A stretch of DNA of 64,000 bases from Eledone cirrhosa (taxonomy: Eukaryota): contig OZ024757.1 in NCBI GenBank assembly GCA_964016885.1, forward strand, positions 37,572,001 through 37,636,000. The letters run 5' to 3'. The notes beneath the pieces are model-generated. The model saw only the letters and a list, made by a program, of their open reading frames with translations. It was not told the origin of the DNA and made no database searches. A program made the position numbers and the translations under genes. Shown here in pieces: positions 16,041 through 63,585 of this stretch (the stretch's first letter is position 1; the number at the start of each line of letters is the position of its first letter).

Positions 16041-17310
16041 AAAATGTGTGTATATATACATATCTACATATATATGTATACATCTAAATATATATATGTA
16101 TTGTATATGTATACATATCTATATATATGTATACATATATATATATATATATGTATATATCTATATATATGTATATATCTATATATATGTATATATCTAT
16201 ATATATGTATATATCTATATATATATGTATATATCTATATATATGTATATATCTATATATGTATATATATATACATATATATATGTATATATCTATATAT
16301 ATGGATATATCTATATATATGGATATATCTATATATATGGATATATCTATACATATATATATATGTATATATCTATATATATGTATATATATACACATAT
16401 ATATATATGTATATATCTATATATATGTATATATATACACATATATATATATGTATATATCTATATATATATGTATATAGAAACATATATATATATATGT
16501 ATATATCTCTATATATATGTATATAGAAACATATATATATGTATATGTACATATATATTTACATATCTTTATCTAAATACACAATACCACATGACTATTA
16601 CAGCCATCATTACAACTACTATTACCACCACCACCACCACCACCACCACCACCACCACTACTAATAATATTAATAATACGATGAAATATCCTCTCGTTTC
16701 TTCCATTATTAAATTGTAGATATTTATGTAAACACAGACAAAAGTCGCAAGGAGAAGTCGACCAATTATGTAGCCGCTCCGACAGTTAAATGTATATATT
16801 TGGCTGAAAGTTTTTCAAAGACATCTCTTTTACTGCTAGAGTCTTTCATCTGCCTAGTTTGGACGCAAATATACCACGACACTGCCGCCATAACACATAA
16901 CTAAGGTAATTTGATGAGATCTGATGACCGTTGTACAGGCACCAATTTGACCAGCGCTTTACAAAAGAAGAGGAATGGGTCTCGGTCTGTTTCGACGAGG
17001 ATATACCGTATATAGTATAGACTAGCGAATATATATAATGTATATATACACACATTAACACAAATACCGCACCTCACATACAATATATATATATATATAT
17101 ATATACACACTCACATCAATCGATAGATGTGTGAATGTACTCGAGAAAGTATTTATATATGTACACTATATATATAATATATATATATATATATATATAT
17201 ATATTATATATATATATATTATATATATATATTATATATATATATATATATAGAATAAGAACAAGTCGAGGTAGTGTATATGTTAAAGAGTCCTTTATTA
17301 ATAAGGCTGG

Positions 17311-17385
17311 GCTGTGATACATATTTCAATGGCGACAGTGGGCACGTGATTTCACGCAACCAGTGTCATGATCTCATCAGACAGC
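17311..17385 (-). ncRNA. Type I hammerhead ribozyme in a PLE-derived insertion between (TA)n tracts
   Basis: Minus strand: GCUGU-CUGAUGA-[long stem II]-GAAA-UAUGUA-UC|ACAGC. Perfect 5-bp stem I, minimal stem III, AUC cleavage site. Confidence 0.75.
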
Positions 17386-17406
17386 TTCATTATATATATA
17401 TATATA

Positions 17407-17999
17407 TGGTGGCTGCCAACTCGTTTTCGAGTACGGCCACTACTTTATATCCATGTAGGAGAACCCCTACCGATGCGCTGAACAAGTGTGTCTTTCTAAT
17501 CCAGCCAGCGACTTGAAAACTCTGGTATAAACACTAGACTTGTGAAAATTATTGACACATAGTGCTGGGCCCATGGTACCATGTGACGACAAGTGCAGAG
17601 AGATCTCCAGATATAAAGCAATGCCTGTGCCGTGAAGCTTTTATAGTGAGCAAAGGCACTGTACGATGCCAGTCCCACTCTCTTAACCAAGATGATATTT
17701 ACCAAAAAGAAGAACAAGTCAACATCATTGGATACCATCAGGGTTGCAGGTGTTATATCAGAGTTTTCCTTCTCCTAGAATTCTGCCTTGACAAAGACTA
17801 AGGGGTCATCTCTCCCGGTGATTTTGAATGGCCACTGACTCTTAAGAACTTCTTTGCCCTTTGACAGGTCACCAGTTGGTGCTACTGGTAACATGTATCC
17901 CAGTACAACCTGTCTCATGGTCGGGTCGTTGGCGACTAAACTGGCAACCCCACCAATGTTTCTTGGTGAGGAGGGTGACTTTGGACATCCTGCAGGACT
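17407..17999 (-). pseudogene. Possible highly decayed Penelope-type reverse transcriptase fragment
   Basis: Minus translation PRNIGG...DPTMRQVV...PTGDLSK...DITPATLMVSNDVDLFFFLVNI, then GTMGP in another frame. The order resembles PLE RT motifs PRxYG/PLRPVVS/PTYxLSK/MVSFDVxSLFTNI/GxxMG. It has stops and frameshifts and is flanked by (TA)n. Confidence 0.4.
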
Positions 18000-18359
18000 A
18001 AAATATATATATACACATACATATATACATACATTAATTGAAAAAGGTTTCAAGCGATGAGTGTAAATGAATTTTTTAACAATATATCTATCAAGTGTTA
18101 AACTAATATACATCTTCATTGTACTGTATCGTTCAGCTGTGACGTGTCGCTGTTTACGTTTCTCACACACACAAACGCATGGGTATATAAATCTGGCCCT
18201 CTGTTGCATATGCAGACTATCACTGACGTACTTATCCTTGTACAATGAATATATATCTGTGGGTATGATTGTGTATATGCATGTATAACAATCATATTTG
18301 TGGGTATGATTGTGTATGCATGTGTAGTTATATCTAGATATATATATATATATATATAT

Positions 18360-18428
18360 GGACGGAAATGTGGTAAGGAACCAGATGGACCATAACGCAC
18401 CAAAGTACTCAATATTTAGAGAGTGGAA
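18360..18428 (-). mobile_element. PLE family A, 3' tail-only copy
   Basis: GGAAATGTGGTAAGGAACCAGATGGACCATAACGCACCAAAGTACTCAATA directly after (TA)n; matches 40948-41005. Confidence 0.85.
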
Positions 18429-18539
18429 TATGATAAAGTCCACAACGCTAAAAGCTAAGGTTTAATAGCAGTAAATTATATACAGCGTTTTATGCCGTTA
18501 AATTTTCGACTTTGGGATTTATATAGAAATATAGAATAT

Positions 18540-59644: not shown

Positions 59645-60830
59645 TATATATATATATATAATATATATATGTATATATACATATATACATATATATGTAT
59701 ATATACATATATATGTATATATACATATATATATATATGATATATATAGATATATATGTATATATATATATATGATATATATATGATATAGATATATATG
59801 TATATATATATATATATGATATATATATGATATATATATAGTATATATATATATATGATATAGTATATATATATATATATGATATATATATATAGTATAT
59901 ATATATATATGATATAGTATATATATATATATATGATATATATATGATATATATATATAGTATATATATATATATGATATAGTATATATATATATATATA
60001 GTATATATATATATATATATGATATATATATGATATATATATATAGTATATATATATATATGATATAGTATATATATATATATGATATAGTATATATATA
60101 TATATGATATAGTATATATATATATATGATATAGTATATATATATATATATATGATATAGTATATATATATATGATATAGTATATATATATATATATGAT
60201 ATATATATATATATATGATATATATAGTATATATATATATATATATGATATATATATATATAATATATATATGTATATATACATATATATAATATATATA
60301 TGATATATATATATGGTATATATAATATATATATGATATATATATATAGTATATATATATATAGTATATATATATATAGTATATATATATTTAGTATATA
60401 TATATATATATGATATATATATATATAATATATATATGTATATATACATATATATATTATATATATATATATATATATAGTATATATATATATATATATA
60501 TGATGTATATATACATATATATCATATATATATATAATATATATATGTATATATACATATATATATTATATATATATATATATATAGTATATATATATAT
60601 ATATGATGTATATATACATATATATCATATATATATATATAATATATATGATATATATATATAATATATATGTATATATACATATATATATGTATATATA
60701 CACATATATATAATATATATGTATATATACATATATATATATATATAAAATATATACATATATATATATGTATATATAAAATATATACATATATATGTAT
60801 ATATACATATAAAATATATATACATATATA
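59645..60830. repeat. (TA)n array with TATGATATAG interruptions
   Basis: Directly visible. Confidence 0.95.
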
Positions 60831-61129
60831 AATTCACACACACACATGCCTATGTATACACGTGCAAGCATATCTATACACTCTTACTTCCATTTGTAGA
60901 ATATTTCCATATATTTACATACGTACACTTTCTTTTCCTGTCTACTAACTAACACTCTTGTCTCTTATTTAGTCTTAGCCATGGTATCTTCTAGAACAAT
61001 CTCTCAACTTCATTATTATATTCCAAATTACTTCCGAAAAAATACCTCTAAATAATGTTGAACACTCATTTTCTTCACAAGGAACAGAATAATTTAAAAT
61101 AATTTTAATTTGCGCTTTTGTGTCTACAA

Positions 61130-62280
61130 GTATATATGTATATGAATGTATGTAAGTATATGTATGTATGTAAATATATATGTATGTATGTAAATATATA
61201 TGAATGTATGTATATATATGTATGTATGTATATATATGTATGTATATATATGTATGTATATATATGTATGTATATATATATATGTATGTATATATATGTA
61301 TGTATATATATATATATATGTATATATATATATATATATGTATGTATATATATGTATGTATATATATGTATGTATATATATGTATGTATATATATGTATG
61401 TATATATATGTATATATATATATGTATATATATATATGTATATATATATATATGTATATATATATATATGTATACATGTATATATGTATATATATATATA
61501 TGTATATATATATATATGTATATATATATATATGTATATATATATATATGTATATATATATATATGTATACATGTATATATGTATATATGTATATATATA
61601 TATATATGTATATATATATATATGTATATATATATATGTATATATATATATGTATATATATATATGTATATATATATGTATGTATATATATTATATATAT
61701 ATATGTATGTATATATATATATATGTATGTATATATATATATATGTATGTATATATATATATATGTATATATATATATGTATATATATATATATGTATAT
61801 ATATATATATGTATATATATATATATGTATGTATATATATATGTATGTATATATATATGTATGTATATATATATGTATGTATATATATATGTATGTATAC
61901 ATGTATATATATATATATATGTATACATGTATATATATATATATATACGTATGCATGTAAGTGTATGTATATATGTACGTGTGTAAGTATATATATGTAT
62001 ATATATGTATCTATATGTCTGTATATTTGTGTTTATATGTATATATATGTACGTATGTAAGTATATATATGTATGTAAGTATATATATGTATGTAAGTAT
62101 ATATATGTATGTGTATATTTGTGTTTATATGTATATATATATGTAAGTGTATGTATCTATATATATATGTAAGTATATATATATATGTATGTAAGTATAT
62201 ATATATATATGTGTATATTTGTGTTTATATGTATATATATAAGTGTATGTATCTATATATATATGTAGGTATATATATGA
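61130..62280. repeat. (TA)n/(TATG)n array
   Basis: Directly visible. Confidence 0.95.
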
Positions 62281-62359
62281 AAGGTAAGTACATATATATA
62301 CCTAATCACAGGTGTGTGTGTCTAACTATATTTATACGTATCGTATTTAAAAAATGGCA

Positions 62360-62778
62360 TATAAACTACACAAAAGCTACATATAAACTACACAAAAGCT
62401 ACATATAAGCTACACATAAACTACACAAAAGCTAAATATAAGCTACATATAAACTACATATAAACTACATATAAACTACATATAAACTACACATAAGCTA
62501 CATATAAGATACACAGAAGCTACATATAAACTACATAAAAGCTACATATAAACTACACAAAAGCTACATATAAACTACACATAAGCTACAAATAAACTAC
62601 ACAAAAGCTACATATAAACTACACATAAGCTACATATAAACTACACAAAAGCTACATAGAAACTACACAAAAGCTACATATAAACTACACAAAAGCTACA
62701 TATAAACTACACAAAAGCTACATATAAGCTAGACATAAGCTACATATAAGCTACACAAAAGCTACATATAAACTACAT
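62360..62778. repeat. 12-bp minisatellite (ATAAACTACAC/AAAAGCTACAT variants)
   Basis: Directly visible. Confidence 0.92.
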
Positions 62779-63410
62779 GTTTTTTGCCGTCAGTTTTTAG
62801 TATTTAACATTTATTGAAATATACAGATGAAGTCGAGCAAATAAAAATCGGTTAAAATAGGCGAGTAAACATCAGAAAAGAAATGTCTTTTTAAATACCA
62901 ATACTTCTGTAATATGTAAAAAAGTAGATTAGTTATAATAGAATACATTTGTAACAAGCTTCTTGTAGACATAAAACATACAGGTAGGATAGAATATTTG
63001 TTTATATATATATATATATATATATATATATATATATATATATATATATATAAATGCATATATAAGGTAAAGTCACACACATACATACACACACGCACTC
63101 ATATATATATATATATATATATATATATATATATATATATATATATATATATATGCGTATATAAGATAAAGACACACACACACACAGACATATATATATA
63201 AAAGTGCGTTTACTATTCCCGAATCCAGGAAGACCGACGTTTTACACGTAAATATACAAAGGCTTTAATACTATAGATAGGCAGACATACAGAGAGATAG
63301 ATATATAGATAGAGGAAGATTCATATATATAGATATATTTCTTTATTTGTCACAGGCAGACAAACAGAGATAAACATGTAGGTATATATATATATATATA
63401 TATATATATA

Positions 63411-63585
63411 TAGGACCCCGACGGCAGATCTCAAGCCGGTTTCGACTGCTATTTCTGGACCGTCGAAACGGCTTGAGCTCTGCCGTCGGGGTCATACTTT
63501 TTCCTATAACCCACTCTACTACCTTAAGTATTGAGTACTCTGGTGCGTTATGGTCCATTTGGTTCCTTACCACATCTCCTTCGTC
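63411..63585 (+). mobile_element. PLE family A hairpin+tail insertion
   Basis: An inverted GGACCCCGACGGCAGA...TTTCGACTGCTATTTCTGGA is joined to the sense CCGTCGAAACGGCTTGAGCTCTGCCGTCGGGGTC plus tail; (TA)n on both sides. Confidence 0.9.

Follow-up and report, generated by a model that had tools for sequence, protein, structure and literature searches.

Paired 3' ends of hammerhead-bearing islands in (TA)n tracts of Eledone cirrhosa suggest priming by Penelope-like elements from both target ends

A 64,000-nt stretch of the Eledone cirrhosa genome (contig OZ024757.1, positions 37572001-37636000, within the 3.0-Gb assembly GCA_964016885.1; hereafter the window) has a GC content of 33% and 726 TA runs, between which lie short islands of several sequence families, here called A to H, and singletons. 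These islands are probably the 3' ends of Hydra-type and Neptune-type Penelope-like elements (PLEs), together with passengers lacking an open reading frame (ORF), inserted into (TA)n; the hairpins among them would have arisen when reverse transcription of a single RNA was primed by both cut target ends, at a distal fixed site by one and at a proximal fixed site by the other. A preliminary description of the window, which had seen in the islands an inverted repeat with a one-sided tail, overlooked the mechanistic signal held in their junctions. The elements add members to the known Hydra, Neptune-type and retrozyme kinds, and their hairpin+tail structure, (TA)n bias and hammerheads are already published; the junction evidence on mechanism is new.

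Families and inverted repeats were recovered by self-comparison of the window, and island ends were placed by mapping onto natural reference copies. Arms of a family end at two fixed 3' positions (-76 and +4 in A, about -85 and 0 in B, -83 and 0 in E, -62 and 0 in G, and -36 and 0 in C), spaced ~35 to 100 nt apart, and where the continuation is known each end has a 3- to 5-nt TAT-like overlap with the target. Inverted pairs numbered 121, of which 14 with an unclassifiable end were excluded. Among the 107 classifiable at both ends, 101 combined a distal with a proximal end, 5 were distal+distal, and 1 was proximal+proximal (P = 1e-23 against 50%). Pairs of families B, C, E, and G came mainly from targeted searches; A pairs were also counted as incidental copies, all 23 of which were distal+proximal (3 left out). 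Apex sequences differ from copy to copy.

How far the two arms reach bears on whether a hairpin could be made by fold-back or self-priming, in which one cDNA, or an antisense RNA, folds and is copied back and endonuclease resolution leaves the tail, as proposed for rotifer Penelope (Arkhipova 2013, PMC3846280). The arms reach equally far in 59 of 101 pairs, many apices are palindromic, and the arms share a haplotype, all as expected from such copying. However, the proximal, tail-less arm is longer in 30 pairs, by ~1 kb in one A pair (the distal arm is longer in 12), and in 11 pairs the arms do not overlap at all. A copy cannot contain sequence absent from its template, so fold-back cannot yield non-overlapping or longer tail-less arms; it is refuted as the sole route, leaves the abrupt 5' boundary described below unexplained, and is in our view unlikely. 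Short, similar-sized inverted repeats with TA flanks and high copy number would also suit miniature inverted-repeat transposable elements (MITEs), or a fixed non-autonomous hairpin family amplifying as a unit, but the repeats are not terminal, having a tail on one side, the apices vary among copies, and the same ends run on into reverse transcriptase (RT)/GIY-YIG ORFs, so that this explanation is very improbable. A MITE or other DNA transposon with terminal inverted repeats was rejected on the one-sided tail and the variable apex and arm length, which upholds the earlier warning that a MITE label would be wrong.

Sequence variants are largely shared by the two arms of an insertion, with 8 of 156 comparisons discordant in family A, compared to 52% between insertions, and 1 of 13 in family E, compared to 68%. 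Arms also run through the predicted cleavage sites, at -95 in A, -132 in B, -138 in E, and -139 in G, meaning that the templates were likely uncleaved.

In four unrelated families (A, B, E, and G), the 5' ends of the arms concentrate on an initiator-like CA. Of 251 arms, 101 begin within 2 nt of the putative +1 and only 6 in the 23 nt upstream; the others are truncated 3 to 13 nt downstream (79), start far upstream (35), or lie at the seed edge (30). The putative start of family A is TCATTT, with a second peak at TTAGTC, sites which we take to resemble the initiator consensus. A G precedes +1 in 24 of 40 cases, compared to 13 of 94 truncated starts. An internal promoter with an initiator is known in the pseudo-long terminal repeat of Drosophila virilis Penelope (PMC2377424). 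The short hairpins are likely run-off copies of the RNA's 5' end. Another explanation invokes two independent RNAs, one per RT subunit, with site choice by subunit asymmetry and with the 5' cliffs being structure-induced RT stops. It would accommodate the 2 of 29 B pairs that differ at both internal diagnostic sites, the five distal+distal pairs, the position of the A cliff inside the hammerhead stem II loop, and the ambiguity of the cap-G signal. Yet the arms are mostly concordant, four sequences with no relationship to one another have their cliffs on a CA, and starts immediately upstream are very few, and we therefore give this explanation little credence. Two-ended priming on one uncleaved RNA is favored over fold-back because of the distal+proximal pairing, the finding that either arm may be the longer, the 11 non-overlapping pairs, the shared haplotypes, and the 5' pile-up at CA.

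Under two-ended priming, the GIY-YIG domain would cut both strands of palindromic (TA)n, and the RT, for which a dimer is predicted in an Anolis element, would prime at both sites. The two cDNAs would then join head-to-head through short microhomology, the tail representing the RNA between the two priming sites, and where arms overlap the distal cDNA would have to displace a strand, a putative step. Priming on the 5' copy of the terminal repeat would let the cDNA run off at the capped 5' end and give uniform hairpins of 140 to 400 nt or single arms, while long arms carrying ORF sequence would result if an uncleaved read-through RNA were primed on its 3' copy. The same enzymes might move ORF-less units in trans. 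That most copies are directly integrated strong-stop products, made when both target ends prime at the two fixed sites within the 5' terminal repeat of a single capped RNA and copying runs off at the cap, is a tentative extension, for which belief and doubt are nearly balanced, with doubt slightly ahead. LINE-1 twin priming, in which a nick in the second strand primes internally and leaves an inverted 5' segment, differs from the present case, in which the internal site does not vary and overlap between the arms, with duplication of sequence, is frequent. In vitro, the Anolis Poseidon element PAc cuts and extends both strands of an AT-rich target, uses uncleaved RNA, and has two internal start sites that bound the tail (Frangieh 2024, PMC11167929), although in the parts of that work considered here the two sites are linked neither to inverted arms nor to run-off at the 5' end of the RNA.

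Several observations weigh against this interpretation. The +1 positions were chosen after viewing the data, and the families used as a later test gave no clear confirmation, with 4 of 28 arms near a CA in F and 7 of 44 in H. The G before +1 falls to 19 of 35 when four ambiguous loci are removed, occurs in only 1 of 12 cases at A -140, and can in many of the remaining instances be read as microhomology with the partner arm. Copying of the cap is only suggestive, since the A position tested is the second peak and many Gs have that other origin. Start site, cap and cleavage are all putative. Six of 107 pairs depart from distal+proximal, and arm comparisons are noisier in B (26 of 88 discordant, of which 5 of 58 at two internal sites and the remainder at the junction base) and in G (24 of 129, mostly in a homopolymer). 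Shared haplotypes could be explained by later conversion or by one dominant source. PAc is reported to have no homology at its start sites (PMC11167929), in contrast to the TAT-like overlap here, and for family E no ORF was found in two upstream extensions.

Family A supplies the clearest link to a coding element, and its copies in the window are as follows.
40949..42634, minus strand: distal arm with the end of the GIY-YIG ORF (stop 42233), 3' untranslated region (UTR), hammerhead and ~80-nt tail (100% match to many genomic copies; translation).
42646..43146, plus strand: proximal (tail-less) inverted arm, ~500 nt (self-comparison, end mapping).
41041..41134, minus strand: complete type I hammerhead with U3-A8 core, second copy at 43041-43134 on the plus strand (descriptor).
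24227..24339, minus strand: short copy with distal arm and non-overlapping proximal arm (sequence, self-comparison, end mapping).
28871..29036, minus strand: hairpin+tail (end mapping).
49694..49892, plus strand: hairpin+tail of an older subfamily (self-comparison, end mapping).
55013..55151, minus strand: hairpin+tail (end mapping).
57730..57906, minus strand: hairpin+tail (self-comparison, end mapping).
63413..63585, plus strand: hairpin+tail (self-comparison, end mapping).
18360..18417, minus strand: tail-only copy, no hairpin (end mapping).
58683..58743, plus strand: tail-only copy with TA on either side (end mapping).

Self-comparison and end mapping bear out the nine copies first counted (18360, 24227, 28871, 40949, 49694, 55013, 57730, 58683, and 63413) and the physical linkage to a GIY-YIG ORF, whose end at 42233-42634 on the minus strand runs continuously into the A 3' end. 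Judged by its motifs, family A is a young Hydra-clade PLE. A genomic array shows a tandem unit of 3,531 nt, four units of which hold an intact 717-amino-acid ORF with the RT followed by a C-terminal GIY-YIG domain (YIG at 606). The clade is assigned because RWR (37), DKT (117), CNCPDRSIC (572), CNLC (670), and CKH (698) fit the diagnostics of Craig 2021; the unit exceeds the Hydra trait of "generally <3 kb," which in that paper is a tendency and not defining. A search of protein representatives yielded many relatives, while no CCHH motif was seen by eye in the protein and Pfam gave no match to the 133-amino-acid endonuclease (EN) end. The terminal repeat has a complete type I hammerhead fold with a U3-A8 core by descriptor, and TA adjoins 110 of its 130 terminal matches. 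The 1,686-nt window segment matched at 99 to 100% in all 40 scored candidates (of 2,723 first-look candidates). In a blind sample of 89 stretches of 10 kb (890 kb) taken at round coordinates, which is not formal random sampling, 26 A insertions were found, extrapolating to 54,000 to 125,000 copies. One A arm, near 9310 in locus L201, starts at the putative start site and is preceded by sense RT-coding sequence, which suggests that the RT, on reaching the RNA 5' end, switched template to another copy; partial tandems might arise in this way.

The published Hydra clade shares with family A its RWK-type, DKT, CxCX5C, CxxC, and CxH motifs, C-terminal GIY-YIG, (TA)n, hammerhead, and tail with inverted arm (PMC8557442). 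Craig 2021 (PMC8557442) describes in PLEs a bias to (TA)n as well as hammerheads, tails and inverted arms, and its supplement lists Hydra-1_Obim from Octopus, with (TA)n preference and a hammerhead differing from that of A. By eye, the first part of the Hydra-1_Obim protein looks similar to family A, whereas A has a U3-A8 hammerhead with long stems, a 3.5-kb unit, a tail of ~80 nt compared to 30 to 40 nt, and tens of thousands of mostly short copies.

The remaining islands belong to other families, with these positions in the window.
19494..19779, minus strand: family B (Hydra-type) hairpin+tail (self-comparison, end mapping).
50499..50907, minus strand: family B hairpin+tail, both arms ending near the putative start site (descriptor, end mapping).
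50630-50700, minus strand, and 50807-50877, plus strand: two complete family B hammerheads (descriptor).
34957..35153, plus strand: family C hairpin+tail, no complete hammerhead (end mapping).
35286..35425, minus strand: family D (Hydra-type) single arm with mutated hammerhead (end mapping).
35194-35259, plus strand: second family D piece, tail-to-tail with the one at 35286.
19861..20013, minus strand: family E distal-ended arm with short inversion (end mapping).
40415..40616, minus strand: family E proximal-ended arm with mutated hammerhead and short inversion (end mapping).
45984..46189, minus strand: family G (Neptune/Nematis-type EN) single arm from putative start site to distal end, U3-A8 core.
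57124..57324, minus strand: family G single arm (end mapping).
46216..46299, no single strand: family H, two proximal-ended pieces tail-to-tail (end mapping).
157-279, minus strand: further family H copy.
24754..24957, plus strand: family F hairpin+tail (end mapping).
17253..17390, minus strand: diverged family F relative, single arm with degenerate hammerhead (end mapping).
24990..25400, minus strand: 5'-truncated copy of a 525-nt ORF-less tandem unit resembling non-LTR retrozymes, complete hammerhead at 25101-25190.
49923..50117, minus strand: Neptune-type PLE 3' end with minimal hammerhead.
35551..35720, plus strand: hammerhead-bearing repeat family (descriptor).
50131..50270, minus strand: degenerate-hammerhead repeat (motif scan).

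The preliminary description is partly confirmed by these assignments: it somewhat overstated the design and the hammerhead count, but the signal is real. Two window copies each of B, E, and G were recovered, and TA indeed joins the island ends, with 284 of 343 terminal matches abutting TA in six families across the fetched loci (beyond A, 54/57 in B, 30/39 in E, 43/61 in G, 22/28 in C, and 25/28 in the family at 50.0 kb). The hairpin+tail design holds for 11 islands, since sequence reading and mapping place a head-to-head arm with a tail in seven of nine A copies, both B copies, C at 34957, and the 24754 island. It does not extend to the single arms, namely, the two tail-only A copies, both G copies, and the islands at 17.3, 25.1, 50.0, and 50.2 kb, or to the tail-to-tail pieces of D (35194/35286) and H (46216/46256). 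Likewise, several unrelated families do share one (TA)n niche, as the term guild implied, though they are not a new kind, and the core idea of abortive or non-autonomous PLE insertions stands for truncated or non-autonomous islands. The islands at 35.6 and 50.2 kb, which were not linked to a PLE, have relatives in the fetched loci but no ORF within 2 kb upstream, no genome-wide search having been made.

Linkage of families B to H to PLE ORFs is uneven. Four families (B, D, G, and that at 50.0 kb) are joined in sense to predicted PLE ORFs. Of 19 loci for each, Hydra-type EN or RT precedes B in 3 (2 sense) and D in 7 (6 sense). For G, a C-terminal EN and a CX4CxxC linker appear in 2 of 18 loci, the RT of G not being recovered, and all three extensions of the 50.0-kb family show Neptune-like RT and EN. 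E is linked more weakly than B and D, to a Hydra-type ORF in 2 of 14 loci and through inverted arms only, and for C no ORF link was found in 40 loci. One Hydra-type family lies near H in 4 of 19 loci, a link that is tentative because a long TA tract intervenes in the locus inspected, which weakened the idea that H runs continuously into the upstream Hydra ORF. In loci L374, L381, and L388, H may travel as a compound with a Hydra-type element lying upstream of its match across a long TA tract, possibly by read-through capture. The Naiad clade, marked by an N-terminal EN and the lack of a canonical hammerhead, was ruled out, since the EN is C-terminal in A, B, D, G, and the 50.0-kb family. The CX2-5CxxC linker and C-terminal EN of Neptune/Nematis are shared by G and the family at 50.0 kb, and the KPADKG RT of the latter resembles the Neptune rows of the Craig alignment by eye, not by tree. 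PLE-type GIY-YIG ORFs without the Hydra linker in loci L177, L391, and L104 represent further PLE lineages in the genome.

Hammerheads were claimed to number about a dozen in the window. Six complete ones pass the descriptor (two in A, two in B, and one each at 25.1 and 35.6 kb), while ~8 further cores are mutated or cut by eye. A first descriptor, too strict at 2 motifs, was replaced by a second one. The motifs exceed chance, with 3 in 23.6 kb of unmasked window compared to a mean of 0.07 (maximum, 1) in 100 dinucleotide shuffles; the bare CTGANGA count is mildly enriched (18 versus 10.0 +/- 3.0; maximum, 19 in 200 shuffles). Folding z-scores of six motifs are unremarkable (-1.39 to +0.85), the minimum free energy fold of the A hammerhead at 41041..41134 showing three stems at z = -0.15, and support for the hammerheads hence rests on the descriptor test. 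An Rfam scan showed no hammerhead family among the 150 of 470 matches listed, which were dominated by microRNA-family matches on TA repeats.

The blind stretches contain 82 motifs in 26 clusters, compared to 2 to 3 in five local shuffles and 4 in a complement control; 17 of the 82 come from two single-locus arrays, one probably a low-complexity false positive. U3-A8 occurs in 24, and in 48 of 82 a TA run follows within 150 nt, compared to a background of 13%. Extrapolation gives ~2.6 x 10^5 intact motifs per genome (bootstrap, 1.7 to 3.8 x 10^5). Their density is uneven, since 100 kb beside the window (L183-L192), though TA-rich, had only 1 descriptor hammerhead, along with 7 A copies and far fewer families. 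Cervera 2014 (PMC4209133) reported the U3-A8 core, known for Schistosoma PLEs, and opposite-strand hammerhead pairs 100 to 700 bp apart. The motifs here resemble those minimal PLE hammerheads in their type I folds, palindromic stem III, U3-A8, opposite-strand pairs and many heterogeneous families per genome, but exceed the ~2,000 to 9,000 per genome of that study and the up to 120,000 retrozyme copies in axolotl (PMC7229834), comparisons in which the descriptors differ. More degenerate hammerhead-bearing ends, absent from the preliminary description, lie at window 53781-53970, 24030-24192, 34792-34920, and 46343-46423, the first type having many relatives across the fetched loci, some of them hairpins.

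Besides coding elements, (TA)n receives ORF-less repeats. To judge from their arrays, family C and the 17.3/24.7-kb and 25.1-kb families are tandem units with PLE-type ends. The 25.1-kb family, whose 525-nt-period arrays have no ORF and carry a complete type I hammerhead in successive units, fits the predicted structure of a non-LTR retrozyme. Family F and its 17.3-kb relative form an ORF-less tandem unit of ~1.2 kb whose imperfect stem II fails the hammerhead descriptor, and C forms one of ~530 to 570 nt with no complete hammerhead and a core without the matching GAAA half; neither C nor F thus has the complete type I hammerhead per unit that defines retrozymes. By eye, C is similar to the 3' UTR of another Hydra-type family, in which GAAA precedes CTGATGA (L418 2590-2718 with L381 1-700; L060 1560-2100), and C may derive from it, its motif being a permuted or decayed ribozyme. 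Non-LTR retrozymes, likewise ORF-less tandem type I hammerhead units (as at 25.1 kb; F imperfectly), have been proposed to be moved by PLEs (PMC7229834; bioRxiv 10.64898/2026.07.22.740005). Unlike those described, the units here have PLE-type fixed 3' ends at (TA)n, with C and F forming distal+proximal hairpins, and measure 525 to 1,240 nt compared to 150 to 450 nt; the word "tail" is absent from the main text of the bioRxiv paper. Other tandem hammerhead arrays, retrozyme-like with periods of ~310 and 590 nt (the latter U3-A8), occur in blind stretches L222 and L179. A PIF1-like helicase ORF at L361 1-1295 (minus strand), presumably Helitron-like, adjoins an F insertion.

Other repeats in the window stand apart from these families. 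A dispersed repeat of ~120 to 190 nt has five good copies (23254-23444, 27645-27760, 39118-39309, 49471-49651, and 57541-57664) and weaker ones at 4574 and 18957, in an AAT-rich setting and not TA runs; we assume it to be like a short interspersed nuclear element. A near-perfect inverted repeat of 330 nt (92%) at 11650-11978 lies without TA flanks in a large GGAAA-rich satellite (11.3-16.0 kb), and a TA-rich local duplication of ~270 nt spans 20037-20330 and 20341-20600.

No earlier statement of the distal+proximal rule or of run-off hairpins was found in the open-access literature that was searched. A 2026 repeat annotation of Octopus vulgaris lists Penelope-like families, "Hydra" and "hammerhead" being absent from its main text. 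Craig 2021 (PMC8557442) calls the origin of PLE tails and inverted repeats open, and the parts of it considered here hold no junction statistics. Published proposals differ, between self-priming (Arkhipova 2013) and two internal start sites (Frangieh 2024), and the tens of thousands of young insertions in this genome have junctions able to discriminate between such models. Family A lends itself to direct testing in vitro, since its Hydra ORF is intact and near-identical among copies, its ends are mapped, and its (TA)n target is simple. Structural support for PLE mobilization of animal retrozymes comes from the ORF-less units that bear PLE-type ends. If the strong-stop reading is true, a single rule would account for PLE tails, head-to-head repeats, and solo terminal repeats, and the same route would have seeded about a quarter million hammerheads genome-wide and mobilized retrozymes.

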